Assembly (NCBI GenBank): GCA_028286725.1
Contig: JAQBQZ010000009.1
Span: 1,408 to 65,407 of the forward strand
Direction: 5' to 3'
Length of the DNA: 64,000 nt
DNA from: Candidatus Tayloriibacteriota bacterium
Lineage (GTDB): Bacteria > Patescibacteriota > Minisyncoccia > Phycocordibacterales > CAIRYW01
The notes below the pieces were generated by a model. That model saw nothing but the letters and a program-made list of their open reading frames with translations, was not told where the DNA came from and did no database searches. The position numbers were made by a program, and so were the translations under genes. Shown one piece after another: positions 10,431-51,476 of the stretch (position 1 is its first letter; every line of letters begins with the position of its first letter).

Positions 10431-10465
10431 ATGAACATTATAACTCAAAAATATTGACATGTAAC

Positions 10466-10502
10466 GAAAAAGTGCCGTAGCCTTTGGCTACGGCACTTTT
10501 TT
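10466..10502. terminator. bidirectional intrinsic terminator after the 2160-aa gene
   Basis: AGTGCCGTAGCCtttgGCTACGGCACT flanked by AAAAA and TTTTTT. Confidence 0.75.
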
Positions 10503-10518
10503 GTTTTTTCTTCTCGTA

Positions 10519-13500: not shown

Positions 13501-16500
13501 TGATTGATCTGTTGATCTTATATAAAGAGTGATATTGCCGGTCGTGTCTGGCGCTCCAATATCGGATCCCCCCAAACTACAGTCTGTTGCAATCCAGCTT
13601 GAATTGTCATAACTGTAAGCGCATTCAGTAGGCCCATAAATACCCCAGTCTACAATTGCACCTGCCCAAGTTGCGGACGTAAGGGCATAATCAGTTACAG
13701 GTTGAGTTATATTTACAAAATAGCAAGATCCGTCATCTATATTTGCAGCTCCGTTGTAGTTTAATGCACGCCCATCTGTACATCCAGAAACATCATAAGT
13801 ACAAGAACCATCATCTGTATTTGCAGAAGAATCATAGTTGTTTGCAGAAGAATCCATACATCCCAAAACAACAGCCACACATGATCCATCATCTACATTC
13901 GCAGCAGAGTTGTAATTAAATGCTGAAGGATCTGTACAGCCAAGTACATCATAAGTACAAGAACCATCATCAGAGTTTGCAGAAGAGTTGTAATTATTAG
14001 CAGTAGTATCTGTACAGCCAGATGTTCCCTGACAACTATAATCGCAGCCTGAATCCACATTTGCACTTGGGTCATAATTACAAGCATTAGAATCTGTACA
14101 TCCGACTACATCATATGAACACGATGCATCATCTACAGTAGCGCTCGGATCATAGTTAGTAGCGGCACTATCAGTACATCCGTAAACAGGTGAGTAAGAG
14201 AAATTAACCTGCGCAAAGTAATTATTTGAGGCTCTTATATAGAGAGTATTAGATCCTATTTGAGGCTCAACAAAATCAGATCCATTAGAACCACAATTCG
14301 ATGTATACCAACTTGTATTATCATAACTATATTCACATACACCAGGTCCACCAGATACATATACACCCCAATTAACTGTTGCGCCGCCTCCCCAAGTGCT
14401 CATTATAGTATCACCCTCTAATGGATTATTGATTTGAACACGGTAACAACTTCCATCATCATTATTTGCAGAAGAGTTGTAGTTTATTGCATTACCATCT
14501 GTACACCCTGATACAGTATATGTACAAGAACCGTCGTCAGAGTTTGCCGAAGAATTGTAGTTGTTTGCCATATTGTCTGTACATCCTGTAACGGTGTAAG
14601 TACAAGAACCGTCGTCGGTATTTGCTGAAGAATTATAGTTATTGGCAGACGGATCAGTACAACCAGAGACATTATAGGTACATGATCCGTTGTCATGCGT
14701 AGCATTTGAATCATAATTGCTTGCAGATGAATCCATACAGCCTTCATTATATGTACAACCACCACTGTCTACGTTTGCTGATATATTATAATTGTTGGCT
14801 TGGTTGTCAGTACATCCAGAAATATTAAAATCACAACTTCCATCATCGTAGTTTGCTGATGAGTTGTAATTATTTGCACCTTGAGTAGTGCATCCATAAA
14901 AGAGGCATGAACCATCATCAGAGTTTGCAGATGGATTATAATTATTCGCACTCGAATTCGTACATCCAGGAACAGTATACGCACAACTTCCGTCGTTATA
15001 ATTTGCTCCCGAATTGTAATTGTTTGCAGTGGTGTCAGTACATCCATAGAAGAGACAAGACCCGTCATCTGTATTTGCAGATGAATTGTAGTTATTAGCA
15101 CTTCCATTCATACATCCATTAACAGTATATGTACAAGAACCATCATCAGTATTCGCTGATGCGTTGTAGTTATTAGCACTTCCATTTGTACAACCAAATG
15201 ATTTTGCTACGCAAGAACCGTCATCATTAGTTGCAGATGAATTATAATTATACGCGTTAGAATCTGTACAACCATTTACGTTATGGCAACTGTAATCACA
15301 ACTACCAGAAGATCCGTAATTACATGCTGTACCGTCAGTACATGTAGTATTATTTTGGCAACTGTAGTCACAGCCTGAATTTATATTTGCACTCGAATTA
15401 TAATTACATGCACCAGAATCCATACAACCGTAAGTATCATAAGTACAAGAACCATCACTTATGGTCGCGGATGAATTATAGTTGTTTGCAGAATTATCTG
15501 TACACCCATATGTATCATAAGTACAAGAACCGTCGTCTTGAGTTGCTCCCGAGTTGTAGTTGTTTGCAGAACCTGTTGTACAGCCATATATAGTATTAGA
15601 AACATTTACACTTATAGCATCAGAAACTGATGAATTCCCTGCAACATCTCTTGCCACCACATCTATATAATAGACTCCATTTGAGACAGTAGTAGAATCC
15701 CAATTCAAATCGTAAGGTTCAGAAGTTATCTCTGAGCCTAAATCACTAAAATTACTGCCATCTGTACTCACTCGAAATTGTACACCTGCAATAATTCCAT
15801 TATCGGTCACATCTGCACTCAGATATACCGAAGATCCGTTCACACCCGAACCATTTGTTGGAGACGAAATAGTGGCACTTGGAGCAGACATATCTGTCGG
15901 TTGATAAAATGTTCCATCTGTACCATAGGATCCTGATGATCCCGTACCACCTGTCGATCCTGGATTACCAGGAGTTCCCGATGATCCATTCTGACCAGTT
16001 GCACCTTGAGCACCATCAATTCCACAGACAACATTTTCAGGATCACTATAATCACATCCATGTACACCCCCTCGTCCACCTTGTCCGCCTGGACCACCAT
16101 TAGCACTTCCTCCAGCGCCTCCTTGTCCACCTGCTCCTGGAGCACCTGCGTAACCTCCAGTTAAATTTTGACCGCCGATAGTTGAACCTTCATCAAGATT
16201 AATATTTCCTGAGTTTCCTCCAGCTCCGCCATTGCCTCCATTACCACCTGCTCCTCCATCACCAGCAGGGCTTCCACTAGTACCGTCTTGCCCAGGACTT
16301 CCATCACCACCATTACAATTTGTATTTGGATCACAATCAGTTCCAGGAGCTCCATCGCTACCCGCCACCCCATCTGCACTTGTCGCATCAGAACCATTTG
16401 CCCCCATTCCACCATTTCCTCCCGCACCCCCATATGTAGAAACGGTACCTGTAACTTTTGAATGATTTGCCAAAGTAACATTACCTCCATTTCCTCCGTA

Positions 16501-17001
16501 ATCTCCGGAAGCACCGTCGCCACTTGTTGCATTAGGTGCTGATGAACCAGTACCACCAGTAGCCACGATATTTCCATTAACTGTAGTATTCGAAATAGAG
16601 ACACTGCCAGCAGATCCCGCTCGAGTCGCTATGCCATCTGCACCACTCGCAATAATATCTCCGTTCAACGTAAGATTCGTTATTTGAACAGCGAGACCAT
16701 CGTCTCCATCACCCCTTAACACCCCTGAAGCATTTATATTTCCAGTTATTGTATGCCCCCCGCCATTTATAGTTATTCCAGAAGCAGTAATAATAAGACA
16801 ATCACCTCCGCCTCCAAAATCGCCAGTTATTTCATATGTTTCATTTGGCGTAGCAAGAGACTGACAGCCTCCAACAGTCGTATCTGCAAAAGTAGATTTC
16901 GGAAAAAGAAATGCCCCACCTAGAGAGAGAAAAGTGACAAGAAATATAAGCAAGGGCGAAGTAAAACTATATATTTTTTTGATCGTCCGTGACTTATACA
17001 T
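10519..17001 (-). CDS. giant surface protein carrying at least 45 tandem 28-aa Cys-pair repeats and a C-terminal PG_binding_1-like anchor
   Basis: 2160 aa with a signal/TM N-terminus (MYKSRTIKKIYSFTSPLLIF) and a Gly-rich region with DPENVVCG. Long arrays of G-C-T-D-x-x-A-x-N-Y-N-x-x-A-x-x-D-D-G-S-C-x-Y units are interrupted by three roughly 90-aa CEYSYDN modules. An FN3-like module and a C-terminal LQRFLNATGY...FGAATKAALAKFQ...GYFGL PG-binding-like domain follow. Confidence 0.85.
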   Translation of the reverse strand: MYKSRTIKKIYSFTSPLLIFLVTFLSLGGAFLFPKSTFADTTVGGCQSLATPNETYEITGDFGGGGDCLIITASGITINGGGHTITGNINASGVLRGDGDDGLAVQITNLTLNGDIIASGADGIATRAGSAGSVSISNTTVNGNIVATGGTGSSAPNATSGDGASGDYGGNGGNVTLANHSKVTGTVSTYGGAGGNGGMGANGSDATSADGVAGSDGAPGTDCDPNTNCNGGDGSPGQDGTSGSPAGDGGAGGNGGNGGAGGNSGNINLDEGSTIGGQNLTGGYAGAPGAGGQGGAGGSANGGPGGQGGRGGVHGCDYSDPENVVCGIDGAQGATGQNGSSGTPGNPGSTGGTGSSGSYGTDGTFYQPTDMSAPSATISSPTNGSGVNGSSVYLSADVTDNGIIAGVQFRVSTDGSNFSDLGSEITSEPYDLNWDSTTVSNGVYYIDVVARDVAGNSSVSDAISVNVSNTIYGCTTGSANNYNSGATQDDGSCTYDTYGCTDNSANNYNSSATISDGSCTYDTYGCMDSGACNYNSSANINSGCDYSCQNNTTCTDGTACNYGSSGSCDYSCHNVNGCTDSNAYNYNSSATNDDGSCVAKSFGCTNGSANNYNASANTDDGSCTYTVNGCMNGSANNYNSSANTDDGSCLFYGCTDTTANNYNSGANYNDGSCAYTVPGCTNSSANNYNPSANSDDGSCLFYGCTTQGANNYNSSANYDDGSCDFNISGCTDNQANNYNISANVDSGGCTYNEGCMDSSASNYDSNATHDNGSCTYNVSGCTDPSANNYNSSANTDDGSCTYTVTGCTDNMANNYNSSANSDDGSCTYTVSGCTDGNAINYNSSANNDDGSCYRVQINNPLEGDTIMSTWGGGATVNWGVYVSGGPGVCEYSYDNTSWYTSNCGSNGSDFVEPQIGSNTLYIRASNNYFAQVNFSYSPVYGCTDSAATNYDPSATVDDASCSYDVVGCTDSNACNYDPSANVDSGCDYSCQGTSGCTDTTANNYNSSANSDDGSCTYDVLGCTDPSAFNYNSAANVDDGSCVAVVLGCMDSSANNYDSSANTDDGSCTYDVSGCTDGRALNYNGAANIDDGSCYFVNITQPVTDYALTSATWAGAIVDWGIYGPTECAYSYDNSSWIATDCSLGGSDIGAPDTTGNITLYIRSTDQSFAGAFNKTSASVNFTYDISGCTDSSASNYDSTATVDDGSCTYDVLGCTDSAYLNYNSSATVDDGSCSNDVLGCTDPVSTSYDPAATIDDGSCLYNMGCTDSTAFNYDALANRDDGSCVAVAFGCIDGTANNYNSSANTDDGSCTYDVVGLYFNGAVDNDWNNLGNWWGDASFVIPATVLPNNSSTVYISAAVNSNSGATPTVNQATFSNGAVIRVSIIATNSVIFNDDSQNLGSVTASVVEFNNSAQNHGDINGNVNVYYPTPNPIGGTVSGNVDYLGYILGCTDSTANNYNNMANTNDASCTYDISGCTDSSYVEYNAAATIDNATCLTLKVFGCTDSSANNYDSSANTDDASCEFVVSGCTDSFANNYNPSATTDDGSCTYDVYGCTDPVAINYNSSANIDDGFCVYMDITAPTHNQNIVNWTGATVNWGNFSPDTCEYSYDNNTWHSANCAVNGSDIPQPDSNGAVTIYLRSSSPDFESGTPQTTQQTFNYIPPDILGCTDSGYTEYNSAATVDDGSCSTLVILGCMNEAYLEYSGAANTDDGSCVTPKVPGCTDPSARNYNSSANVDDSSCTYDVLGCTDAGYEEYDPSANVDDGSCVTLIGNGNGVSVPQISGLSATPASNAATISWTTNVDASSQVSFGPTYNYSRTTAETDVVTRVTSHSINISGLVACSIYHYKVASTDELSHTGESNDSTFTTTGCTGNAAVVASDSNSINVGSGGSFSVDSMNISVPNNFTSATTSATFQIKKLNTLSFVGSAGTPSGQNFVGTVYNLKALVNDTDVISTFDHPITVTLSYSPSDIININPSTLSIYRYDGSAWYPLSSCSVNTGARTVTCETSNFSDFAIFGTAYTPIISTGGGGGGVFNFLTMQANNSQSVAVATTAAATTTTPAKTLLNLKASRFTFTKVLQFGDTNTEVLALQRFLNATGYTIAKTGAGSKGKETNKFGAATKAALAKFQKSHRINPPAGYFGLVTRSYINAMLKASQK

Positions 17002-24593: not shown

Positions 24594-24674
24594 GCCCGGG
24601 TGACGAAATGGTAAACGTACTCGACTCAAAATCGAGCGCCGCAAGGCTTGGGAGTTCAAGTCTCCCCCCGGGCA
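24594..24674 (+). tRNA. tRNA-Leu (anticodon CAA), long variable arm
   Basis: Acceptor GCCCGGG/CCCGGGC, anticodon stem-loop CTCGA-CTCAAAA-TCGAG, variable arm CGCCGCAAGGCTTG and T-loop GGAGTTCAAGTCTCC. Confidence 0.8.
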
Positions 24675-24729
24675 CAAAATACAAAAAACAGAGAAATAAT
24701 TTCTCTGTTTTTTGTATTTTGTGCCCGGG
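24667..24729. repeat. 63-bp perfect palindrome overlapping the tRNA-Leu(CAA) 3' end
   Basis: CCCGGGCACAAAATACAAAAAACAGAGAAAT / ATTTCTCTGTTTTTTGTATTTTGTGCCCGGG. It is followed by the short hairpin GAAAGTGCtaaacGCACTTTC and an inverted T-arm copy TGGGAGACTTGAA. Confidence 0.85.
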
Positions 24730-27802: not shown

Positions 27803-27958
27803 TTATTTCTTCGCTTCTTTGAAAGTGATGTGCTTTCGGAGTTTCTTTGAGAATTTCTTGAGCTCAATCTTTCTCTGGACACCCTTTTTGTTCTTTCGAG
27901 AGTAGTATACCTCGCCTGTTTCTTTGTTTTTTAATATAAGTAGATTATCCTGTGACAT
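27803..27958 (-). CDS. rpmG: 50S ribosomal protein L33
   Basis: 51-aa ORF MSQDNLLILKNKETGEVYYSRKNKKGVQRKIELKKFSKKLRKHITFKEAKK. It matches the L33 pattern (Y-T-KNK-N...LELKKY...LRKH...KE-K). It is absent from the ORF track because it is under 60 aa. Confidence 0.8.
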   Translation of the reverse strand: MSQDNLLILKNKETGEVYYSRKNKKGVQRKIELKKFSKKLRKHITFKEAKK

Positions 27959-28067: not shown

Positions 28068-28150
28068 GCGTAGGTGGTAGAGCGGTCAATTACAAGAGAC
28101 TGTAAATCTCTCGCCTTCGGGCTACACAGGTTCGAATCCTGTCCTACGCA
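28068..28150 (+). tRNA. tRNA-Tyr (anticodon GTA), long variable arm
   Basis: Acceptor GCGTAGG/CCTACGC, anticodon stem-loop AGAGA-CTGTAAA-TCTCT and T-loop GGTTCGAATCC. Confidence 0.75.
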
Positions 28151-28209
28151 CAAAATATGAAAAAACCTGAAGCAAGTTTGCTTCAGGTTTTTTCATATTT
28201 TGTGCGTAG
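28144..28209. repeat. 66-bp perfect palindrome overlapping the tRNA-Tyr 3' end
   Basis: CTACGCACAAAATATGAAAAAACCTGAAGCAAG / TTGCTTCAGGTTTTTTCATATTTTGTGCGTAG. Followed by GAAAGTGCtaaatGCACTTTT and GGACAGGATTTGAAGCC (inverted T-arm-like). Two more degenerate direct copies of the tRNA 3' half lie at 28311-28330 and 28380-28399. Confidence 0.85.
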
Positions 28210-31170: not shown

Positions 31171-31380
31171 ATTTTAAATAGTATTTAGTTTATTATTTGT
31201 AGTTTTATAGTATAAAAGACGGAAACCCGAGAACTATCTTAATAATACGATCATTATAGCACAAAATGTGCATTTTCTAAATGACAAAGTCCTGGATTTT
31301 GCTTCGCAAAATCCAGGACTTCTAATTAAAAATCCCACGCAACAGCAAGCTGTCGCGCGGGATCAATGTGTAAGCTTTCG

Positions 31381-31569
31381 TCAGCGAAATTTCGGGTGGC
31401 CGAATGGTTCCCAAAGCGGCTGCTGGTAGTAGCCACCGTAGGGGTAAATCATATAAGTGCCAAGTGGCCCCGACATGAAATTCTGCCCCGGTGTGAACGG
31501 TGCATTCCCGTTCGGGTACACACAGGACACGAGACTCAGAGCAGCAAACAAAAGAATAAAGGTCTTCAT
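31381..31569 (-). CDS. small secreted lipoprotein (62 aa) in GC-rich island
   Basis: MKTFILLFAALSLVSC lipobox-like signal, then a Pro/Gly/Tyr-rich tail. The start is at the internal Met of ORF 31381..31596. Confidence 0.45.
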   Translation of the reverse strand: MKTFILLFAALSLVSCVYPNGNAPFTPGQNFMSGPLGTYMIYPYGGYYQQPLWEPFGHPKFR

Positions 31570-31583
31570 CGTGTTTGTCTGAG

Positions 31584-31955
31584 TTAGTTGCTCCATCCTC
31601 CCGTTTGAGGATTGAATCCTGCGGAGTAACCTCCGCCCACCATGCCGTTTCCAACCGGGTAGATTGGCGACGGCTGGCGACGGACTTGCTGCTGGTTGTA
31701 GAAGTTGCCAAATCCGTTGAAACCATTGTTTCCAGAGTTCACAGGCATGCTGTTATTGCTGGGATAGTAGCCACGATTGGAGCCTGTGTTCACTGGGATG
31801 CGGGGAGCGTTATTGCCGGGATAGTAGCCACGATTGGAGCTTGTGACCACAGAACCACCTTGGCCGTAGCCGTAGTAGCGGTTGACGGTGCAGTTGCTGA
31901 AACCAGTGGCAACGAGGACAGCGAAGACGAGGCGGATGATGAGAGATGTTTTCAT
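31584..31955 (-). CDS. small secreted Gly/Tyr/Asn-rich repeat protein (123 aa)
   Basis: MKTSLIIRLVFAVLVATGFSNC signal, then internal repeats SNRGYYPGNNAPRIPVN / SNRGYYPSNNSMPVN. GC-rich codon usage. Confidence 0.45.
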   Translation of the reverse strand: MKTSLIIRLVFAVLVATGFSNCTVNRYYGYGQGGSVVTSSNRGYYPGNNAPRIPVNTGSNRGYYPSNNSMPVNSGNNGFNGFGNFYNQQQVRRQPSPIYPVGNGMVGGGYSAGFNPQTGGWSN

Positions 31956-31996
31956 GAGCTTGAGTTGGGTGGAGTTGTTGGAGTTACGCAAGCAGT

Positions 31997-32130
31997 TTGT
32001 TTCTGCGAGCGTGAAAATGAACCACATAAATGGACCATTTTCACGCTCGCTTTTCTCATTTTATCCTTATTTTGTTTGACGAATAGCTTTCAAAGAACCT
32101 TACTTAACTAGGATAAGTATACACCATATT
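31997..32130. repeat. about 130-bp module (copy 1) containing a perfect 14-bp inverted repeat. It is repeated at 33431-33535 upstream of a second secreted-protein gene.
   Basis: The hairpin is GCGAGCGTGAAAATgaaccacataaatggaccATTTTCACGCTCGC. The shared block GCTTTCAAAGAACCTTACTTAACTAGGATAAGTATACACCAT follows, then an AAAGTCAATACCCC... GC hairpin. Confidence 0.85.
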
Positions 32131-32237
32131 TAGGTAAAAGTCAATACCCCTGAATTTCATTGAAATTCAGGGGTATATAAAAAAAGAGACTCGCTAGGTG
32201 GGTACCATGCGAGTCTCTTCGTAGTTGAAGCCAGATG

Positions 32238-33368
32238 TTAGTTCGGACGGATGTTGAACCGGGATGACCCAGACGACGCAGACTGGCGTTTCGCTCCTGC
32301 CTGTGCTGCAAGTGCTGCTTGGATGTCTGTCCGATCCTGAGCCTTGAGCTTACCATTTGCGGCGAACCGCGTAAGGTATTCCCGCTGAGGATCAGTCAGA
32401 TTTCCATCCAAAGTGGCCTGGAAGGCAGCAATGCTGTTTTCGACAGCCTTGATGTCTTGAGGGCTTGCACCCCCTGCAGCACGTGCTGCGTCCAAATCAT
32501 TCTGACCCTTCTGAACGAAACTCCGCATAGCTGTGCGCCATTGAGACTCATTGCCGTTGTCGGCAACAGCAAGACCTTCGGGCTGGCGGCTAAAGATAGA
32601 GCTTCCCGGATATTGCTTCCGTTCTGCTGCATCAGTAACGGCTTGGATTGAAGGCACTGCGACAGCGACTGGAACTGGCTGTTGTTGGCGAAGCACAAGA
32701 GCTTTTTCGAGCTCAAGAACTTTTGCTTCAGAAGCTTCCAGCTTGCCCTTGGCTTCATCACGCTCCTTGCGGGCGGAATCGGCTTGGGAACTGTAGAGAT
32801 CAGCATTTTTCGCTTTGTCGGCGAGAGACTCCAGCTGTTTCGCATGAGTCTCAGCTTCACTCAGCTTCTTAGCAGTGTCAACCTTCTCCTTGATGGCGTC
32901 GGTTGTGGACTTGTCGGCAAGCGTGAGCTTGCTTTCCAATTCCTGCTTCTTGCTCTCGGCAGCCTTGATATCAGCCTCGAGCTTCTGCATCTTCTTTCCG
33001 TCCTCGATGCGGCCCTCGTTGAGAGAGGCCACAGTCTGCTGATACCCCAAATTTTCTTTGGAGAGCTTCTCCATCTTGGAGTTGCCGTTGCCGCCGAAGA
33101 TGAGGCAGAACAGGAGGATAAGGAGTGCAGCAGCTTCGGCCAAGATGATGATGCCCTTGGTGCGACCTCTTTGGGCCGCGTTCCGAGTGGCACAGTCTTT
33201 GCCTTCAGTGCGAGCTTCTTCCACCTCATCGAGGTGAATCTGGATCACATTCTCCGGATCCTTGCTGACCGCTTCGATGAGCAGCGTACTGCTGTCGAAC
33301 GGACCGGGAGCCGGTGGTGGTGTGTTGGTTGGAGCTGGAGTGCGTGTTGGTGGGGTGTGTGTGTTCAT
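32238..33368 (-). CDS. membrane-anchored coiled-coil protein (376 aa) in GC-rich island
   Basis: Pro-rich N-terminus and one TM (GIIILAEAAALLILLFCLIFGG). A long Lys/Glu/Ala-rich coiled-coil follows (KLEADIKAAESKKQELESKL...). GC-rich codons. Plus-strand ORFs overlapping it are judged spurious. Confidence 0.5.
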   Translation of the reverse strand: MNTHTPPTRTPAPTNTPPPAPGPFDSSTLLIEAVSKDPENVIQIHLDEVEEARTEGKDCATRNAAQRGRTKGIIILAEAAALLILLFCLIFGGNGNSKMEKLSKENLGYQQTVASLNEGRIEDGKKMQKLEADIKAAESKKQELESKLTLADKSTTDAIKEKVDTAKKLSEAETHAKQLESLADKAKNADLYSSQADSARKERDEAKGKLEASEAKVLELEKALVLRQQQPVPVAVAVPSIQAVTDAAERKQYPGSSIFSRQPEGLAVADNGNESQWRTAMRSFVQKGQNDLDAARAAGGASPQDIKAVENSIAAFQATLDGNLTDPQREYLTRFAANGKLKAQDRTDIQAALAAQAGAKRQSASSGSSRFNIRPN

Positions 33369-33430
33369 ACGGGTGGGATGTGTTGCATTTTGACGGAATT
33401 GACATCACGGATCACAAAGGGGTTTTGTCC

Positions 33431-33535
33431 TTGCGAGCGTGAAAATGAACCACATAAATGGACCATTTTCACGCTCGCAGTACTAACATTTGGCTTTCAA
33501 AGAACCTTACTTAACTAGGATAAGTATACACCATT
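33431..33535. repeat. second copy of the 14-bp-IR leader/promoter module
   Basis: The 46-nt hairpin and the GCTTTCAAAGAACCTTACTTAACTAGGATAAGTATACACCAT block are identical to those at 31997-32130. The AAAGTCAATACCCCTCCTACCGcacGGTAGGAGGGGT hairpin follows. Confidence 0.85.
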
Positions 33536-33606
33536 TTATCACAAAAGTCAATACCCCTCCTACCGCACGGTAGGAGGGGTATTTTGACCTATTTTATCTC
33601 TATTTC

Positions 33607-34995
33607 TTAAGCTATAATCCCCTTTCGAGCAAGATTATCTCTCTTGAACTTTGCGATCATTTCTCGCTGGGTCATACCGAGCTTGGCTGCTTTCTTCTTC
33701 AAGAATACCCACGCCATAAATGCTGACCAAAGTGTCATACCGAGTACGAAAAGGATCATTTTGAGGTTCTCTCCTACTCCTGTATATGGAATATCACTAA
33801 GATATACTCCAGAGGCAAGTGTTCCGTTGTTTGGTGTATTACCACCGTTACTTACGAGAGTAATATTGCCGTTGTTTCCACCTACATATACATTACATGT
33901 CTGTGTGACTGACTGACCACCTCCATCAGTTATTCGTACTGTCGCAGACTTTGTTCCACTCGTGCTAAACGATTGAGTTACAACTGATCCGTTACCATAT
34001 ACATCTCCTGACCACTGATAGTTATAGTTACTACCATTTCCGCCGTTTGCATTAGCTGTGAATGTAGCAACATTATTACCAGATACACTTGCAGAACAGT
34101 ATCCAGAAAGTGATTGGTTGTAGTTGTTGTTAACCTGAGTACTACAATTTCGTGTGATTGACTGACCGTTTGAAGTGATAGTTACAGTTGCAGATTTTGT
34201 TCCTCCGTTGTAGTAAGTATTTGAAACACTAGAACCATTACCATATGCATCTCCTGACCAACTATATGTATATCCTCCATTTCCACCTGTAGCATTAGCT
34301 GTCCAAGTAACAGTCTGGTTTGTCCCATATGATCCACTTGCAGTACATGAACCCTCCAAAGTATTTGTATTTTGCGCTACCTGGTTTGTAACTACGTTAC
34401 AGTTTCCCTGTCCTGCACAAGTGTTGTTCGTATTAGTGACCGTACTTGTATAGTTATAGTTAGTATTAGTTTTATTGCTTAAGAATGAGAGTGAAGAATT
34501 TCCTCCGTAACCACCACCGTTATTGTATCCACTATATCCACCTCCAATTCCTCCATATGAGTATGGCATTACGTAACCAGAAGAGTATCCGTATGATGAT
34601 GACTGAGGATATCCATATGAAGAGTATCCGTATGAAGGAGATGAGTAACCAGTCGAATAAGGTTGACTGTAAGAATCAGAATATCCATAGTTACTTGAAG
34701 GATAGTAGTCGTAACCAGTATCGTACCCATAATTACTTGAAGGGTAATAGTCGTAAGACGAATCAGCCGCATAGTTACTTGATGGATAGTAGTCGTATGA
34801 TGAACCACTTGAGTAATTACTTGAAGGGTAATAGTCGTAAGACGAATCAGCCGCATAGTTACTTGATGGATAGTAGTCGTATGAACTTCCTTCATCTGCC
34901 ATTACAGCAGTCGGAACTACCAAGATCGCCATAGAAGCAACAACAAAAAGTGCTGTTATTACCCTATATTTGATTGTGTTTATAATGTTTTGCAT
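33607..34995 (-). CDS. secreted low-complexity surface protein with PKD-like domains and a conserved C-terminal IPYTG-TM-basic tail module
   Basis: Signal peptide, then 5x SSYDYYPSSNY tandem repeats. There are two YxYxWSGDxYGNGS...GTKSATVxIT PKD-like modules. The C-terminus SGVYLSDIPYTGVGENLKMILFVLGMTLWSAFMAWVFLKKKAAK...AKFKRDNLARKGIIA is paralogous to that of 44439..45653. Confidence 0.7.
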   Translation of the reverse strand: MQNIINTIKYRVITALFVVASMAILVVPTAVMADEGSSYDYYPSSNYAADSSYDYYPSSNYSSGSSYDYYPSSNYAADSSYDYYPSSNYGYDTGYDYYPSSNYGYSDSYSQPYSTGYSSPSYGYSSYGYPQSSSYGYSSGYVMPYSYGGIGGGYSGYNNGGGYGGNSSLSFLSNKTNTNYNYTSTVTNTNNTCAGQGNCNVVTNQVAQNTNTLEGSCTASGSYGTNQTVTWTANATGGNGGYTYSWSGDAYGNGSSVSNTYYNGGTKSATVTITSNGQSITRNCSTQVNNNYNQSLSGYCSASVSGNNVATFTANANGGNGSNYNYQWSGDVYGNGSVVTQSFSTSGTKSATVRITDGGGQSVTQTCNVYVGGNNGNITLVSNGGNTPNNGTLASGVYLSDIPYTGVGENLKMILFVLGMTLWSAFMAWVFLKKKAAKLGMTQREMIAKFKRDNLARKGIIA

Positions 34996-35130: not shown

Positions 35131-35511
35131 TCAAGGTCGATGTGCGTAAAGCACTTGCACCTCATCTCCCACGAGTCTCAGGACAAAGTGGCCCGATTCT
35201 GTGGCTTCTTCCACCGTCATTCCCCTGCTTTCAGGGATACGAATGCGTCCAGGGATCATATCTAATCCCGTTTTTGGTTCAGCGAGAATCAGATTGCCGG
35301 AGCGGTTGCGTGCAAAGACGAGTTTGCCCTCCTGGAGTGCCTGACGATAGGTTATTTGATGACCACCATAGGTCCGATCGAGTGGAAAGATTTCTCCATC
35401 GAGGATTTTGGGGTTGATTTGAGGCCGGGATTGAGGTTGAGGTTGAAGAGAGTTGCACGATGACAGGAAGCCTGCCACCACCAATAGAGCGATGCGAATG
35501 AGCGAGTTCAT
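35131..35511 (-). CDS. small lipoprotein (GC-rich), function unknown
   Basis: MNSLIRIALLVVAGFLSSC lipobox signal and a 126-aa mature product. The start is taken at the internal Met of ORF 35131..35550. Confidence 0.45.
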   Translation of the reverse strand: MNSLIRIALLVVAGFLSSCNSLQPQPQSRPQINPKILDGEIFPLDRTYGGHQITYRQALQEGKLVFARNRSGNLILAEPKTGLDMIPGRIRIPESRGMTVEEATESGHFVLRLVGDEVQVLYAHRP

Positions 35512-40952: not shown

Positions 40953-41035
40953 GCCCGGGTGATGTAATGGTAGCCATAGGGGACTTAAAATCCCCAGGTC
41001 GCAAGACCGTGCGGGTTCGAGTCCCGCCCCGGGCA
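40953..41035 (+). tRNA. tRNA-Leu (anticodon TAA), long variable arm
   Basis: Acceptor GCCCGGG/CCCGGGC, anticodon stem-loop GGGGA-CTTAAAA-TCCCC, variable arm GGTCGCAAGACC and T-loop GGTTCGAGTCCCGC. Confidence 0.8.
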
Positions 41036-41090
41036 CAAAATACAAAAGACTTCAGAAATTTTTCTGAAGTCTTTTGTATTTTGTGCCCGG
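41029..41090. repeat. 62-bp perfect palindrome overlapping the tRNA-Leu(TAA) 3' end
   Basis: CCGGGCACAAAATACAAAAGACTTCAGAAA / TTTCTGAAGTCTTTTGTATTTTGTGCCCGG. Followed by GAAAGTGCtaaacaCACTTTC and GAGGCGGGACTCGAA (inverted T-arm copy). The arms share GGGCACAAAATACAAAA with the locus at 24667. Confidence 0.85.
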
Positions 41091-43002: not shown

Positions 43003-44025
43003 TTAAATATATTTTTTAATTAATTTTCTTGTTATATAAACATAATACCAAAATGGCTTCAATACGAGATCATAGAGTGCCAGATGGTGAACTACTTCCC
43101 CTCCAAACTTCTGTTTAAAGGAACTCAAGCCCTGCCATTTTTTGTTTTCTTCTCCGACCGACACTGCGCCAAAATTATAATATTTTGCACCCATATCTTT
43201 TGCCTTGAGCATCGCATTAAAATGCGCAAGATATGGAGCACAAAGATCTTTATGCAAATCAGAAGATGCTCCAAATACATAGTGCGCTACATCACCTACA
43301 ACAAACACAACATGTGAGGCGAGACGTTCATTTTCATAAAAAGCTTCGATCAAAAATCCTTTGCCTGTCTTTTCAAGTTCTTCAAAATATTATTTGAAGT
43401 AATCATTATTATGTAGTGCGAATCCTTTTAGAACAGAGGTCTGCTTCATAAGTTCCAAAAAAGCTGGGAGTTTTTTTGCAAGATCCTTATCTATAAGAAC
43501 CGTTTTTATTCCTTTCTTTTCTGCAAGACGAACTGAGTAGCGAGTCTTTGAATGCATTGCACTCAGGATCTCTTCAGGGGTACCACTTATCGCTGTATAC
43601 CACTCGTCACGAGGCTGGAAATACGCACCAACAATTGAAGGGGGTAAGGACTCTGTAAAATATTTTTTGAGTGGAATAGAATTATTTGAATCAATAAAAG
43701 TAAAATCCAGTCTTACAAATGCCACATTATTTTTCTTCGCCCACATTGTGAGCCCACTTTTAATAGATAAAATAATTTCTTCTGATACATTAGAGAGAAT
43801 CGGGCCGTAGGGAGCATACCAGTATGTGAGACTTCTGAAGAGCGGATATTCAACAATAAGAACAGAACCAATAACACTTTTGTCATTTAAGATTTGAAAG
43901 TTCTTTATATTCCTACTCATTCTTTTCTGGATCAGGCCATAGGCAAAAGTCTGAGTTAAAGGAATATTTTGACCATTTACTTCCACAAAATCTTTTTCGT
44001 TTGTAATCTCTTTGAGGTGTATCAT
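43003..44025 (-). pseudogene. FemAB-family (FemX/MurM-like) peptidoglycan bridge aminoacyltransferase interrupted by an in-frame TAA
   Basis: ORFs 43390..44025 (N part, ...MHSKTRYSVRLAEKKGIKT) and 43003..43353 (C part, ...GLSSFKQKFGGEVV) are in the same frame. They are separated by a single TAA at 43390-43392, and translation continues sensibly across it (YFEELEKTGKGFLIEAFYENE...). Confidence 0.6.
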
Positions 44026-44114: not shown

Positions 44115-44188
44115 GCGTCCATAGCTCAGCTGGTAGAGCAGCTCCCTCTTAAGGAGACGGTCGTAGGTTCGACTCCTACTGGACGCAC
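44115..44188 (+). tRNA. tRNA-Lys (anticodon CTT)
   Basis: Acceptor GCGTCCA/TGGACGC, D-arm GCTCAGCTGGTAGAGC, anticodon loop CTCTTAA and T-loop GGTTCGACTCC. The anticodon identity is less certain (G-A at the top of the anticodon stem). Confidence 0.6.
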
Positions 44189-44245
44189 AAATAAAGAAAA
44201 ACCTCAGCAGATATCTGCTGAGGTTTTTCTTTATTTGTGCGTCCA
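44182..44245. repeat. 64-bp perfect palindrome overlapping the tRNA-Lys 3' end
   Basis: GGACGCACAAATAAAGAAAAACCTCAGCAGAT / ATCTGCTGAGGTTTTTCTTTATTTGTGCGTCC. Followed by the hairpin CAAGCgcggggcactTGCTTG and TAGGAGTCGAAC, an exact inverted copy of the tRNA T-arm GTTCGACTCCTAC. Confidence 0.85.
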
Positions 44246-46925: not shown

Positions 46926-47495
46926 TTATCGCGAAATCTCATTACCCGAATTCGCAGAAAACTGGATTGATTGCTGCTGAGCTGGGGCACTAATGCTACC
47001 AGTACTTATTGATTGTGTTGGAGCTGCACTAATAGGAGTATTTACACCTCCAGCATCTTGAGCGCCAGAACAAGTTGTTGAAAAAACTTTATCATCACTA
47101 CTATTGAATTGAGGTATCACAAGCTGCAACCCAAAACTATTTGTAAATAATCCCAATATTCCCCAGATCGAGACCATAAAGAAAAATCCGAGTATCCCAT
47201 AGATCATCATCTTGCGCCCTTCACTCATCTTTTCACTATCATCTCCATGACTTACATATTTGATGAGTCCTTGAATAAAAGCACCGAGCGCAATAACAAC
47301 AAGATAAGGTATGAAATCGAGAGCAAGCTTTACAACAATACAGACAAGCTGGCTAAAATTCTGGGGCGCTGACGGTATCGTGCTCGAAAACATTGAATTA
47401 TCATCAGCATAAACAAAAACTGCATTTATAAGAACAAGAACCGCTACAAGTAGAAGATAATATGGTTTTTTCATCCCGTTAGAAAAGATTAGCAA
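46926..47495 (-). CDS. two-TM pilin-like protein, array member 3
   Basis: 189 aa with signal/TM and core YVSHGDDSEKMSEGRKMMIYGILGFFFMVSIWGILGLFTNSFG. Confidence 0.6.
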   Translation of the reverse strand: MLIFSNGMKKPYYLLLVAVLVLINAVFVYADDNSMFSSTIPSAPQNFSQLVCIVVKLALDFIPYLVVIALGAFIQGLIKYVSHGDDSEKMSEGRKMMIYGILGFFFMVSIWGILGLFTNSFGLQLVIPQFNSSDDKVFSTTCSGAQDAGGVNTPISAAPTQSISTGSISAPAQQQSIQFSANSGNEISR

Positions 47496-47583
47496 TTGCC
47501 TCTAATAAATTTTTATACTTTACATTCATGTGTTTTTGCAGATTTAGATTTTGTAAATAGTCTGCTTTTCTAACGGGACAGGC

Positions 47584-47937
47584 TTATTGTTGTAGTTTTG
47601 GTAAATAATTAGGTATTCCAAAATTCTGTCCAAAGAATGACTGAGTAAGAATGTTTACAAATCCCCAGATTGAGACCATCACAAAAAGAATAATAATTCC
47701 GTAGACCATGATCTTTCTTCCTGCCGACCTCTTCTCCGCATCATCTCCTGCACCGAGAAATCGAAGCACACCCGTCATAAATGTAATGACGGCAATGAGG
47801 ATGAGGGTTGGAATAAGCCCCATAAGATTCCCTACAGAAAAGTTTGTGAATATCTGATTAGCAGTATCAGGTGTTGTATTATCTGCCAACACAAGTGCCG
47901 GGGCGAAAGTGATGATAAATAAAAGAGCTTTTTTCAT
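47584..47937 (-). CDS. two-TM pilin-like protein, array member 4
   Basis: 117 aa with a signal peptide and core FLGAGDDAEKRSAGRKIMVYGIIILFVMVSIWGFVNILTQSFFG. Confidence 0.6.
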   Translation of the reverse strand: MKKALLFIITFAPALVLADNTTPDTANQIFTNFSVGNLMGLIPTLILIAVITFMTGVLRFLGAGDDAEKRSAGRKIMVYGIIILFVMVSIWGFVNILTQSFFGQNFGIPNYLPKLQQ

Positions 47938-47938
47938 A

Positions 47939-48505
47939 TTATTGTTTGAAGACAGTTGCTGATTTTTTTGGAAGGCTTTGAATCTCAGAATCAGTTCCGA
48001 AGAAAGATTTAGAAAGAATGTTTACAAATCCCCAGATTGAGACCATCACGAAAAGAGAAATGATACCGAAGAGCATCATATTTCGCCCTCCCTGTCTCGC
48101 CTCTTCATTATCTCCAGAGCTTACAAACTTGATCACTCCCGCCAAGAATAGTATGAGACCGAGACCGATCAAAAATGGTACTACGGCACTGTCGAGAAGG
48201 CAAAGCGCGTATGTGAACAATGATCCGATGTCGGTTGGAATATGACAGCTTCCAGATGCCGCAGCTCTTGCAGTAGCGTCAGTGACAGTAACCTGATTAG
48301 CTGAAGTCTGGCTAATTCCTGGTTGTACTTGAATACTAGTATTTATTGCAGAATTAACTTGTGAAGGACCTGAACCTCCTAGATTAGAACCTGGTATTGG
48401 GTTATTAGAGAAGCTTCCATCAAATGGACTTGCATAAGCGACTGTTAAAGATAGACCGAGTACAAAAACAGATAATGCTATTAAATATATTTTTTTCATA
48501 ATCAT
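47939..48505 (-). CDS. two-TM pilin-like protein, array member 5
   Basis: 188 aa with a signal peptide and core FVSSGDNEEARQGGRNMMLFGIISLFVMVSIWGFVNILSKSFFG. Confidence 0.6.
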   Translation of the reverse strand: MIMKKIYLIALSVFVLGLSLTVAYASPFDGSFSNNPIPGSNLGGSGPSQVNSAINTSIQVQPGISQTSANQVTVTDATARAAASGSCHIPTDIGSLFTYALCLLDSAVVPFLIGLGLILFLAGVIKFVSSGDNEEARQGGRNMMLFGIISLFVMVSIWGFVNILSKSFFGTDSEIQSLPKKSATVFKQ

Positions 48506-48530
48506 TTATTAATATTAAATATTTATACAA

Positions 48531-48908
48531 TTAATTAACCCCCGTACTCAAATCCTTGACCGTACTTGTCACTGCGAGCATTATCGTTCGCGCACCAAGA
48601 AGTATTGCAGTGCCAACAAGCGCCCAAGTAATAGTCTTATATGCCTTGCTGATCGCCTCTGGGTCACCTTGCGCAGTAACATACATAAATCCGCCGTACA
48701 TAATAGCAAGTACAGAAATAATTGTTCCAAGTTCAATACATACACCTACAATAGAATTAAAAAAATCGGTAAGACTCTTGTTTTGTCCAAGCGGATTAGG
48801 AATGTGACCAGCATCGCTTGCTCCATATACATATGATGTTGCTGATACGAATACAATAAACAAAAATACGCTAAGGTTAATAATTATTTTTTTAAGATTA
48901 ATTTTCAT
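48531..48908 (-). CDS. two-TM pilin-like protein, array member 6 (divergent)
   Basis: 125 aa, signal plus two hydrophobic segments (YVTAQGDPEAISKAYKTITWALVGTAILLGARTIMLAV). Confidence 0.5.
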   Translation of the reverse strand: MKINLKKIIINLSVFLFIVFVSATSYVYGASDAGHIPNPLGQNKSLTDFFNSIVGVCIELGTIISVLAIMYGGFMYVTAQGDPEAISKAYKTITWALVGTAILLGARTIMLAVTSTVKDLSTGVN

Positions 48909-48935
48909 AGTTTAATTATACGATAATTACACTGA

Positions 48936-49439
48936 TTATGCATTAGGTAAACTGCTGCCATCACTAGGAAGAACAGGTGGCGTTCTATCACTTGTATTAT
49001 TTTCCAAAATAGTAAACTCAGGCGAAATCTCAAGCACATTAAGTACAGTTGCAACAATAAGCCATGCAAGCATTATAATGATCACCCCCATTATAGTAGT
49101 ACTAAAAATTTTGTGAGCTTGCTCAACCTTACCCATTTCTCCAAATGCAGTGAGGTACAAAAATCCCGCGTACACAAACATCATTACCGCAATGGTTGCT
49201 GAGATAAAGATAATATATTTTAAAATTCTATTTAAAAGTACAATAAGATCACCCCATCCACATTCCCGGTTGATTGTACCTGAGCCTGTAGTCTGCCCAC
49301 AATCAGTCGATACCAATTGAAAATTAGGATCTGTTGCTGGGTCCCCTGTTGCAGCATTTGCTAACAAAGGAACAGAAAAAGAAAGAAACATTATCCCCAA
49401 AGAAAGAAAACCTATTTTTAATGCATTTTTAATTTTCAT
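48936..49439 (-). CDS. two-TM pilin-like protein, array member 7 (divergent, Cys-containing loop)
   Basis: 167 aa with a signal peptide and two hydrophobic segments (FISATIAVMMFVYAGFLYLTAFGEMGKVEQAHKIFSTTIMGVIIIMLAWLIVATV). Confidence 0.5.
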   Translation of the reverse strand: MKIKNALKIGFLSLGIMFLSFSVPLLANAATGDPATDPNFQLVSTDCGQTTGSGTINRECGWGDLIVLLNRILKYIIFISATIAVMMFVYAGFLYLTAFGEMGKVEQAHKIFSTTIMGVIIIMLAWLIVATVLNVLEISPEFTILENNTSDRTPPVLPSDGSSLPNA

Positions 49440-50788
49440 TATTTTAAGAGTTCATCTACTTGCTGGCTAATAAGCTTCGCTGAATCTGCAGGTTTTGATT
49501 TGCCTGTGACAATATCATCAACACCTTGAGCAAATGCTATGCTGGTTTGAATCGGATCTGGGTCAAGCCATGTTTTTGTCCAAAGCGCACTCTCCCAAAA
49601 TACATCTCCAAAAGAGGTGCCGGGTGAAGCACTCAAAAGATCTCTTCGTGCTGGCGGAAGTCCTGTGGCACTTGAAATCAAACTCGCGATCGGTGCGCTC
49701 GTGAGTACTGAAATATTATTGAAAGCGGCCTGCTGATTCTTTGATGTTGCAAGAATAGAGAAGCTGTACATTGTTCCCGAAGTAACTTTGACTGCTGAAT
49801 CTTTTGGTTGAGGCAATGGTGCAATATCAAAATTGAGGTTTGGATTTTTGGCTCGAATATCTCCCGCATCGCTTGCATGTCCAAAATAAAACGCCAAGTC
49901 GCCATTTATAAATGATTTTTCTGAATCAGGAAGGGACCGGTTCCAAGAATAAACAGACTTCAAAGGATCAGAGAATTGTGTAAAGAACGTAAGTGAAGCA
50001 CTAAATGGTGACAAACTGTCTATGGCAGAATCAGCGTTAAGCAAATTAACAGCTCTATCATTTGAATCTCGACCCACAAATACTCCCCCCGCCTGCATTG
50101 TGAGAGCAAGAAGAATATCTTTTGAATACGCAACATTACTATAATCTCCCATCGCAACAGTGCTTTTAAGAATGCTTCTGTCGTCTCTTCTCTCAGTCAA
50201 TAAATTGGTCAATGACAATACTTCTTCCCAAGTTTGAGGAGGTCTCGCAACATTTTTAGAAGTAAGAATGTTTCTGTTCCAATACATCACTAGTGGATCA
50301 ACAAGAAGCGGTACCCCGTAAGTACCCTTTGAAGTCATGAGAGGCTCTGCCCCTTCGACAAAAGTATCTTGAAATGTTCGCGCTGATAGAGCGTCAGTAC
50401 TGATAACGGTAAATTTTCTTTGGTTTTTGAGAAGGAGTGTGTTTGGCAAAAGTACTGCGTCTGGACCGTAGCCATCAGCAAGGGATTCAATAAGAGTCTG
50501 TTCAAAATTATTTGCAGGAATTTCTTTATATGCAATATTTATACTTGCCATCTTTTGACCGCTTACTACATCAAGCACATTAGCAATAGCACCCTCAGGT
50601 ACTGTGCCCCAAATCACTACTTGAGTAGCATCTGCATTAGTGTTTGAGCTAGTGCTGAATTTTGCAAAGACAATAACACCCGTAACAAGAAAAAGAATAA
50701 AAATTCCAAGAATAATTATTTGAGTAGCGTTCGTTTTCACATTTATAATTATATAGAGAGAAAGATACAAAGACAAGGGAAAATTCAA
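49439..50788 (-). CDS. membrane-anchored extracellular solute-binding protein (SBP family 1-like), orphan
   Basis: 449 aa with an N-terminal TM anchor and a periplasmic-binding-protein-like two-lobe sequence (QVVIWGTVPEG...). No adjacent permease or ATPase genes. It overlaps the start of array member 7 by 1 nt. Confidence 0.5.
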   Translation of the reverse strand: MNFPLSLYLSLYIIINVKTNATQIIILGIFILFLVTGVIVFAKFSTSSNTNADATQVVIWGTVPEGAIANVLDVVSGQKMASINIAYKEIPANNFEQTLIESLADGYGPDAVLLPNTLLLKNQRKFTVISTDALSARTFQDTFVEGAEPLMTSKGTYGVPLLVDPLVMYWNRNILTSKNVARPPQTWEEVLSLTNLLTERRDDRSILKSTVAMGDYSNVAYSKDILLALTMQAGGVFVGRDSNDRAVNLLNADSAIDSLSPFSASLTFFTQFSDPLKSVYSWNRSLPDSEKSFINGDLAFYFGHASDAGDIRAKNPNLNFDIAPLPQPKDSAVKVTSGTMYSFSILATSKNQQAAFNNISVLTSAPIASLISSATGLPPARRDLLSASPGTSFGDVFWESALWTKTWLDPDPIQTSIAFAQGVDDIVTGKSKPADSAKLISQQVDELLK

Positions 50789-51356: not shown

Positions 51357-51404
51357 ATTTTAAAAAGTATTATATATTAAGTATAAGGTATAAAGAATTA
51401 ATTT

Positions 51405-51450
51405 GAAAGAACCGCATAACAAACTTTGTTTGTTATGCGGTTCTTTATTC
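51405..51450. terminator. bidirectional terminator downstream of gyrA
   Basis: AAAGAACCGCATAACAAACtttgTTTGTTATGCGGTTCTTT, a perfect 19-bp stem. Confidence 0.75.
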
Positions 51451-51476
51451 TTAATTCCAAATACTTAATTCTATTT

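Follow-up and report, generated by a model that had tools for sequence, protein, structure and literature searches.

Leaders with a boxA-like box and a structure-conserved hairpin precede hypervariable orphan surface-protein genes in a clade of Patescibacteria

A stretch of 64,000 nt from the genome of Candidatus Tayloriibacteriota (GCA_028286725.1, contig JAQBQZ010000009.1, positions 1,408 to 65,407 of the forward strand), referred to here as the window, carries on its minus strand an island (33620-31240) of two gene units that lies 3′ of a 462-aa PKD-like surface-protein gene (34995..33607). Each unit is preceded by a copy of the same module, which is more than a single regulatory site: it makes up the entire 5′ control region of its transcription unit. 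In the direction of transcription it consists of the terminator of the upstream gene, a predicted promoter, a box resembling the boxA of ribosomal RNA (rRNA) operons, a hairpin, and a C-rich, G-poor leader without a Shine-Dalgarno (SD) sequence that runs to the ATG. The reading that we prefer, and to which we give a probability of roughly 55%, is that this package is a leader akin to the lambda nut site and to the leaders of rRNA operons (rrn), which would recruit Nus factors for Rho-resistant transcription and in which a hairpin of double-stranded RNA (dsRNA) length would be a possible processing site.

An earlier note made from the letters of this DNA had described a duplicated module with a perfect inverted repeat upstream of both genes, and this description was borne out. 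The 46-nt blocks at 32005-32050 and 33433-33478 have the same sequence, GCGAGCGTGAAAAT-18 nt-ATTTTCACGCTCGC, and the arms of the inverted repeat extend to 20-21 nt around a 6-nt loop. The motif search that had been suggested for the 14-mer in each arm returned four exact copies, with none elsewhere in the window. The duplicated blocks comprise 55 nt (95% identical) and 66 nt (91% identical), and within them lies the 42-nt identical block that had been listed; this block proved to hold both the -10 hexamer and the boxA-like motif, the latter missed by the earlier reader. The GC hairpin labelled AAAGTCAATACCCC... that was said to follow each gene also exists, but on the gene strand it lies upstream of each module, where it is the terminator of the preceding gene and overlaps, by its 3′ end, the -35 hexamer of a TTGACT-17-TATACT promoter. 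In both modules of the window the box begins 18 nt past the -10 hexamer and is separated from the hairpin by a spacer of 14 or 36 nt, and the folding z-scores of the whole leaders were -4.3 and -4.0.

The module was compared in 16 copies from eight genomes, two of them in the window and 14 in seven further loci, designated L022 (CAZKPS01, a metagenome-assembled genome (MAG) labelled Ca. Saccharibacteria) and L026-L031 (including L026, GCA_040384245.1; L028, GCA_034680565.1; and L030, GCA_964555825.1). L022 was found by an inverted-repeat pattern scan and the other six were reached through homologues of the PKD protein. The intergenic regions before the island units are built alike in 16 of 16 cases, with the box followed by 1-47 nt, a near-perfect hairpin, a C-rich leader of 13-116 nt and the ATG. 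A predicted promoter of the form TTGAC/TT-16-18-TATAMT is fused to the upstream terminator in 14 of the 16 modules, and L022, L026, L029 and L031 have a promoter of the window type at the same place. The lipoprotein unit of L022 and L026 has another promoter variant (TTGATT...TATAAT) with a hairpin of the same family. The start of the box lies 11-19 nt past the predicted -10 hexamer in 13 modules and about 115 nt past it in module L022-1. Leaders behind the hairpins have an overall C content of 0.33 and a G content of 0.14, with a C/G ratio above 1.5 in 15 of 16.

The hairpin is kept in shape, length and stability but not in sequence, and its loops are not conserved. The 15 distinct hairpins have 19-24 pairs, span 48-61 nt and have predicted energies of -27.8 to -33.5 kcal/mol. 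In most of them the base is richer in GC and the top rich in AU, and a short apical stem is often set off by a 1x1 mismatch beneath it. The three modules of L026 carry three unrelated hairpin sequences. Between the window stem and that of L022-1, two double changes and one GU-to-AU change were seen, together with one change at an unpaired base. Across the eight hairpins of the CGTG type, 99% of the cells were paired and six of 13 pairs had changed on both sides; none of 500 shuffles reached the observed covariation score, and slid controls were 27-50% paired. The leader hairpins are also better conserved than the proteins encoded behind them, since the window and L022-1 share 42 of 48 nt of the hairpin while their proteins are 39% identical, and L026-2 and L031-2 share 50 of 53 nt while their proteins are 42% identical. 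Because the shape is kept with compensatory changes while the sequence varies, the inverted repeat is very probably a hairpin of the leader RNA rather than an operator shared by the two genes. The structured leader RNA that the earlier note had offered as one of two options is thus well supported: the repeat lies between the predicted promoter and the start codon, folds at about -32 kcal/mol and has a stem maintained by compensatory changes.

A terminator or attenuator was also considered for the leader hairpins and was ruled out. No U-tract follows them; their 3′ flanks are mostly A-rich (AAGGACAAAA, AGAAACAAAC and others), and a run of T lies inside the 3′ arm. The terminators of this host are built in the opposite manner, with A/T tracts outside and GC inside, and the terminator scan did not call the leader hairpins. 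Searched against Rfam 15, the whole window yielded nothing but tRNAs at the gathering score. When 31200-33700 was scanned permissively, the only matches were sub-threshold ones to generic hairpins.

The box follows the consensus [T/A]G[T/A/C][T/A]C[T/C]TTGA[A/G]A in 16 of 16 modules, in sense orientation and always 5′ of the hairpin. It is asymmetric, its first C being invariant and the mirror position variable, and is therefore not a palindromic operator. The boxA consensus of gamma-proteobacteria is GYTCTTTAANA, in which the joint mutation C4T/T6C abolishes function and SuhB association (PMC5725501); numbered by this consensus, none of the 16 island boxes deviates at C4 or T6. The boxA of a cyanobacterial spacer is GAACCTTGAAAA (PMC8461337). 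Since a Gram-positive boxA string was found in the literature only as a PCR primer for the Mycoplasma spacer (GTTCTTTGAAAACTGAAT; PMC3019172) and not as a direct citation, boxA was read directly from four plasmid-borne rRNA operons of Firmicutes with the same loose regular expression as was used for the island. Each operon gave exactly two matches, one in the 16S leader and one in the 16S-23S spacer (TGAACTTTGAAAACT, TGTTCTTTGAAAACT, TGACCTTTGAAAACT, AGAACTTTGAAAATT, AGCACTTTGAAAACT and TGAACCTTGAAAACT). The island box agrees with rRNA boxA over 11-12 positions, the essential ones included, and is likely to be a true boxA.

Within the window, a box match with a strong hairpin downstream was found only at the island modules and in a few coincidences of a coding match followed by a terminator. 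The pairs at 51521, 50923 and 41119 were rejected on these grounds, each being a match in coding sequence followed by the terminator of that gene or by a tRNA palindrome. The match of the box at 27814, which lies inside the gene for ribosomal protein L33 on the other strand, was set aside as chance.

The locus behind these leaders is hypervariable. L022 is syntenic with the window, and L026-L029 and L031 show the order aminotransferase gene, 270-aa gene, PKD gene, island and clpB as far as their contigs extend; in L030 the module has a different context, not the slot between the PKD gene and clpB. In every module locus the slot behind the PKD gene holds one to four genes for signal-peptide, lipoprotein-like or transmembrane (TM)-plus-coiled-coil proteins. 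ClpB of L026 is 98% identical to that of the window and the others are 84-91% identical, and island proteins of different genomes are either unrecognisable or at most 32-42% identical. Even between genomes with ClpB 98% identical the gene content of the slot differs. Neither island nor module was present in the three more distant relatives L036-L038, and no box-plus-hairpin pairs were found in 40 kb of more distant relatives. An exact and near-exact search for the inverted repeat found 23 loci in the genome collection, among which only L022 is related and the others are unrelated hairpins; the viral collection gave one unrelated match, and the metagenome collection gave one chance match in a high-GC actinobacterial contig. 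With one related locus recovered from these collections, the sequence of the inverted repeat appears confined to a narrow clade. The identity of the two hairpins in the window is the product of a recent duplication or conversion of module parts within the locus. A chance catch of the same search was a multi-copy repeat family of about 90 nt around AGCGTGAAAATCG...CGATTTTCACGCT in the Polyangiales MAG DATEOF01 (L004, L007, L009, L012, L013 and L019), which is unrelated to the module.

The earlier note had counted two secreted-protein genes in the island. Both are present on the minus strand, but a third open reading frame (ORF) of 62 aa, at 31569..31381, had gone unlisted. It begins 14 nt past the stop codon of the 123-aa gene and has no module of its own, and is therefore probably co-transcribed with that gene. 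None of the island ORFs has a family match in Pfam, NCBIfam, the PDB sequences, a word search of 5.8 billion proteins or a HMMER scan of 1.84 billion proteins. The 376-aa protein of the other unit had four matches among 1.84 billion representative proteins, of which the two traceable ones are the protein itself and its L022 homologue, and these four indicate no donor lineage.

A sharp rise in GC content had been reported for this region, and it holds at synonymous sites as well. In 200-nt windows inside the island ORFs the GC content is 0.51-0.565 against a window mean of 0.407. The gene units have a GC content of 51-55% and a GC content at third codon positions (GC3) of 0.57-0.64, as compared with 0.25-0.40 for GC3 in core genes, while the modules themselves are at 0.345-0.41. 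Similar values were found at the related loci: among thirteen island genes between the PKD gene and clpB, GC3 is 0.51-0.63 with the exception of a 137-aa ORF of L026 (0.41), compared with 0.20-0.48 in core neighbours, and the island gene of L030 has 0.41 against 0.23-0.27 nearby. Amino-acid composition was rejected as the source of the high GC content, since GC3 is raised. The expression-linked codon bias of the host was a partial fit only. The share of NNC among two-fold pyrimidine codons is 0.68 in the island, like that in the genes for S1 (0.73) and L33 (0.67) and unlike that in housekeeping genes (0.37), which fits very high expression, but the four-fold sites differ, with C 0.34 and G 0.19 in the island and C 0.13 and G 0.07 in S1. 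The GC3 excess may have arisen by recurrent replacement from donors with a higher GC content, by selection acting on the mRNA, or by GC-biased gene conversion in a locus prone to recombination. How such a composition persists in the island ORFs despite AT-biased mutation is a puzzle of its own.

The surroundings are ordinary core chromosome of Patescibacteria (candidate phyla radiation, CPR), with a short IF2, topA, gyrA, serS, parB, ftsA/ftsZ, ribosomal protein S1 and clpB, eight tRNA genes and no rRNA gene. An SD-like motif is missing upstream of 33 of the 37 gene starts examined (for example those at 1634, 4322, 6305, 37613, 39881 and 48908), and at least eight of the starts have a TATAAT-like hexamer 6-8 nt before the ATG, implying that leaderless mRNAs are widespread in this genome. 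Since host genes are mostly leaderless or short-leadered and lack SD sequences, the leaders of about 150 nt in front of both island units are exceptional.

For the function of the package we infer Nus-factor binding, antitermination, Rho sensitivity and RNase III cleavage. Each unit would be transcribed from its near-consensus σ70 promoter, to which the preceding gene's terminator is fused. The nascent boxA RNA would be bound by NusB-S10, which with NusA/NusG would turn RNA polymerase into an rRNA-type, Rho-resistant elongation complex, and in this state the polymerase would pass at a high rate through both the long, rut-like leader, which is untranslated, and the ORF with its odd composition. 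Resistance, an established role of boxA in rrn operons and in suhB (PMC5725501), would be needed because some 150 nt of ribosome-free, C-rich RNA is what Rho acts on. The hairpin, at about two helical turns, is of a size suited to RNase III (substrates of about 20 bp or more, or two turns, as compared with the 19-24 pairs seen here) and might be cleaved to give the mature mRNA, as in the lambda N leader and in rRNA precursors. Alternatively, it could be an accessory site like boxB or be read by another dsRNA-binding factor. A broader and distinctly speculative proposal is that the cassettes mimic rRNA, with a Nus-binding boxA and a processed dsRNA hairpin, so as to express hypervariable orphan surface proteins and shield foreign-looking transcripts from Rho, the leaders serving as homology anchors for allele replacement. 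The conserved leader, the rut-like C-rich spacer and the GC3-rich ORFs would then be one system in an otherwise leaderless genome; taken as a whole, this proposal is rather doubtful.

Several points weigh against the Nus-recruiting leader. Its promoters are predictions and the binding of Nus factors is deduced from sequence, and no σ70 promoter was recognised between the upstream terminator and the box in L027-1 and L028-1. The core of the box is short and the loose regular expression has 45 matches in the window, counting both strands, so that the match to boxA rests on position and conservation and not on the motif alone. Neither the window nor 116 kb of related loci contains an rRNA gene, so that the island box was compared with the rrn boxA of other bacteria and not with that of its own lineage. 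Likewise, none of nusB, nusE, rho and rnc lies in the window, and the presence of Nus factors, Rho and RNase III in the genome was accordingly assumed. Compensatory change in a perfect palindrome is equally expected for a DNA cruciform, and the GC3 enrichment is not accounted for by the leader model. The box also precedes the hairpin, whereas rRNA leaders have their small boxB hairpin before boxA. This order, the shortness of the box and the lack of SD-based initiation in the genome would suit a leader RNA unrelated to Nus, in which the hairpin stabilises the mRNA or aids SD-less translation (for example as a barrier to 5′ exonucleases, a standby site or a pause site) and the box is a lineage-specific protein or ribosome motif that resembles boxA. 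Conservation of the hairpin by structure and the CA-rich unstructured sequence between it and the ATG agree with such roles. This explanation is possible but appreciably less probable than recruitment of Nus factors: the box matches rRNA boxA at the positions that matter for function and keeps its orientation and place relative to the hairpin, the hairpin is set back from the very 5′ end, at which protective stem-loops act, and at 13-116 nt from the ATG, which it never covers, it does not occlude the start site. A DNA site was weighed in two forms. The common regulatory operator of the earlier note, bound by a dimeric regulator that would co-regulate both genes, draws on a palindrome that is perfect, identical before both window units and situated just downstream of the promoters, and is nevertheless improbable. 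The arms of 20-21 nt are only 6 nt apart and the entire stem pairs; the three modules of L026 have unrelated palindromes, orthologous palindromes differ by compensatory substitutions, the distances from the -10 hexamer (about 40-190 nt) and from the ATG vary, and neither the rest of the window nor any public genome scanned, one syntenic relative excepted, contains the 14-mer, so that this claim did not survive, the identity in the window being due to local duplication or conversion. Hairpins acting as attC- or REP-like recombination sites that shuffle cassettes through the locus would explain why gene sets vary in the manner of cassettes and each unit has one hairpin, why a module was duplicated or converted in the window, and why structure is kept rather than sequence, as in attC. 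We consider this the least probable of the readings, since the neighbourhood contains neither an integrase nor any other recombinase, the stems pair perfectly and show none of the extrahelical bases or RYYYAAC/GTTRRRY cores that mark attC, two-ORF units have a single hairpin, and the hairpin always stands between promoter/boxA and ORF, 5′ of ORFs that have their own promoters, and not at cassette ends.

The composition and variability of the island bear on its origin. Its GC content of 0.51-0.55 and GC3 of 0.57-0.64 stand against 0.41 and 0.25-0.40, its four-fold sites are rich in C and G unlike those of ribosomal-protein genes, its proteins are orphans, and its gene content differs between close genomes, all of which would be expected if the pair and its own module had recently been acquired by horizontal transfer as a genomic island. 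The earlier note had proposed such an acquisition, and the atypical composition at synonymous sites on which it drew is real, but the proposal as such is weakly supported and we regard it as unlikely. The slot between the PKD gene and clpB is filled by GC3-rich secreted-protein genes in six related, syntenic genomes (ClpB 84-98%), and this conservation of the GC shift at the locus argues against a recent acquisition of this particular pair. Furthermore, the modules are AT-rich like the host and have host-type promoters and terminators; no integrase, transposase or other mobility gene, flanking direct repeat or tRNA junction was found, donor homologues were lacking, and a comparison with 50,697 phage records gave no DNA or protein match. 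Repeated replacement of ORFs inside an old hypervariable locus may nonetheless have occurred.

Features of the two gene units and their modules. Coordinates are those of the window, and modules A and B precede units A and B.
Feature	Position	Strand	Description
Intrinsic terminator of the 462-aa PKD/Tyr-Ser-repeat gene	33550..33583	-	15-bp stem; 3′ arm and T-tract enter the module B -35
Module B promoter, TTGACT-17 nt-TATACT	33523..33551	-	10/12 to consensus; predicted start near 33516
Module B boxA-like box, GTTCTTTGAAAG	33494..33505	-	About 10-20 nt into the predicted transcript
Module B leader hairpin	33432..33479	-	48 nt, 21 pairs, -32.4 kcal/mol; GC-rich base, AU-rich top; no U-tract behind
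Module B C-rich, G-poor leader segment	33369..33431	-	63 nt; C 0.32, G 0.16; no SD; reaches the ATG
376-aa orphan protein	32238..33368	-	Unit B; Pro/Thr-rich N-terminus, one TM helix, long coiled coil; GC 0.547, GC3 0.57
Intrinsic terminator of the 376-aa gene	32184..32219	-	16-nt arms, then a T7 run
Second terminator-type hairpin	32144..32176	-	3′ end overlaps the module A -35, as in module B
Module A promoter, TTGACT-17 nt-TATACT	32116..32144	-	10/12 to consensus; predicted start near 32109
Module A boxA-like box, GTTCTTTGAAAG	32087..32098	-	Same sequence as the module B box
Module A leader hairpin	32005..32050	-	Identical to the module B hairpin
Module A C-rich, G-poor leader segment	31956..32004	-	49 nt; C 0.37, G 0.10; no SD
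123-aa Gly/Tyr/Asn-rich lipoprotein-like protein	31584..31955	-	Unit A; signal peptide ends ...GFSNC; GC3 0.64
62-aa lipoprotein-like protein	31381..31569	-	Unit A; signal ...LVSC; GC3 0.62
Island-closing terminator	31331..31364	-	Just before the clpB promoter region

Other features of the window were recorded alongside the island. The 462-aa protein encoded upstream of it (33607-34995, minus strand) has repeats of the type SSYDYYPSSNY and two PKD-like domains, and its C-terminus, with IPYTG, a hydrophobic helix and KKK, resembles a sortase sorting signal with an extra tail of 27 aa; in L036-L038 the gene for its homologue adjoins a sortase gene. A further lipoprotein-like orphan gene at 35131-35511 (minus strand; GC 0.51, GC3 0.50) has a GGAGG SD motif, unlike its neighbours, and is flanked by two terminators, with no promoter and no boxA module seen. 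On the other side of the island, the clpB promoter region (31253-31321; TTTAGA-17-TATAAT) has a small inverted repeat, GCACAnnnnGTGC (31259-31271), between its hexamers, and a perfect 16-bp hairpin (31287-31321) precedes the promoter. L022 and L026 have kept both, and most of the other relatives still show a recognisable promoter repeat, so this may be a heat-shock operator.

Perfect palindromes with arms of 30-33 nt lie behind four of the eight tRNA genes (24667-24729, 28144-28209, 41029-41090 and 44180-44245) in the form ...GCACAAAATA...(hairpin)...TATTTTGTGC. They start inside the 3′ end of the tRNA, so that the trailer would be able to pair with the 3′ strand of the acceptor, and they may be oversized bidirectional terminators or signals for tRNA 3′ processing. 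Just upstream of a tRNA-Lys gene, a FemAB-like ORF (43390-44025, minus strand) covers only profile positions 148-221 of 406 and may be truncated, split or mis-started. Four tandem genes with T4SS-pilin/TrbC-VirB2-like domains occupy 46926-49439 (minus strand), the last of them directly following the upstream gene for a solute-binding protein (49439-50788). Two giant ORFs of 1353 and 2160 aa at 6399-17001 (minus strand; GC3 0.25-0.27) contain local GC peaks, at 9-10 kb and 16-17 kb, where the GC skew is strongly negative; repeat domains are the probable source. Finally, the intergenic region between gyrA and a methyltransferase gene contains, at 51380-51472, an imperfect inverted repeat whose 45-nt arms are 78% complementary.

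Patescibacteria are mostly uncultured epibionts with minimal genomes, and their gene regulation is almost undescribed. The cassette described here is compact and conserved, and is attached to genes for secreted, lipid-anchored or membrane-anchored proteins of the kind expected in contact with a host, which evolve far faster than the core. If its box is a true boxA, Nus antitermination would reach the mRNAs of cellular surface proteins in a deep bacterial lineage, beyond rRNA and phage genes. It would also bear on how long untranslated leaders survive in a leaderless, SD-less genome, and the combination of boxA with a hairpin of about 21 bp would provide a handle for strongly or specially expressed surface genes in MAGs.

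Among known systems, the lambda nut site is composed of boxA, a spacer and boxB (PMC2724277). Like it, the island leader is, by prediction, a promoter-proximal RNA signal with the order boxA, short spacer and stem-loop ahead of the first gene. The lambda N leader has in addition a long RNase III hairpin between its nut site (nutL) and the start codon. The two differ in that lambda boxB is a stem-loop of about 15 nt, in which a 5-bp stem carries a conserved purine pentaloop that protein N recognises, whereas the island stems have 19-24 bp and loops that are not conserved, and serve genes for surface proteins on a patescibacterial chromosome. An N-like gene was not seen, nor was any similarity to the 50,697 phage records. 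The island leader may thus work like a nut site, yet it is not a member of the lambda nut family. The antitermination leader of rrn (boxB-boxA-boxC, acting through a Nus/SuhB complex) offers a second likeness, since the box is of the class found in the leaders and spacers of Firmicutes and cyanobacteria, a strong promoter, predicted in the island, comes first, and a long double-stranded helix follows a short distance downstream of boxA; in rrn this helix is the processing stem of 16S or 23S rRNA. That helix is formed by strands flanking the 16S or 23S gene, roughly 1.5-3 kb apart. In the island the helix is instead a local hairpin of 50 nt and the product is an mRNA, and the small hairpin of rrn precedes boxA.

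A boxA in the leader of a protein-coding gene has precedents. In gamma-proteobacteria, boxA in the 5′ untranslated regions of suhB, rpsJ and other mRNAs engages Nus factors and interacts with Rho-dependent termination (PMC5725501). Those boxes lie at most 50 nt from the start codon, have no long hairpin, belong mostly to translation-related genes and are repressive in suhB, whereas the island genes encode orphan secreted proteins and their box is 90-170 nt from the ATG. CIRCE and other leader repeats of heat-shock operons are likewise perfect inverted repeats that stand between the promoter and the start codon of several operons. CIRCE is one fixed sequence, TTAGCACTC-N9-GAGTGCTAA, recognised by HrcA; in the island hairpin the sequence is free and the pairing alone is kept. 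The top-ranked literature on boxA combined with Patescibacteria or CPR makes no mention of boxA. While boxA in mRNA leaders and nut-like sites are both already known, what looks new, no description of it having been found, is the combination in a CPR clade of a box of the boxA class, a hairpin of about 21 bp conserved in structure only, a terminator-promoter fusion and GC3-rich, hypervariable genes for orphan surface proteins.

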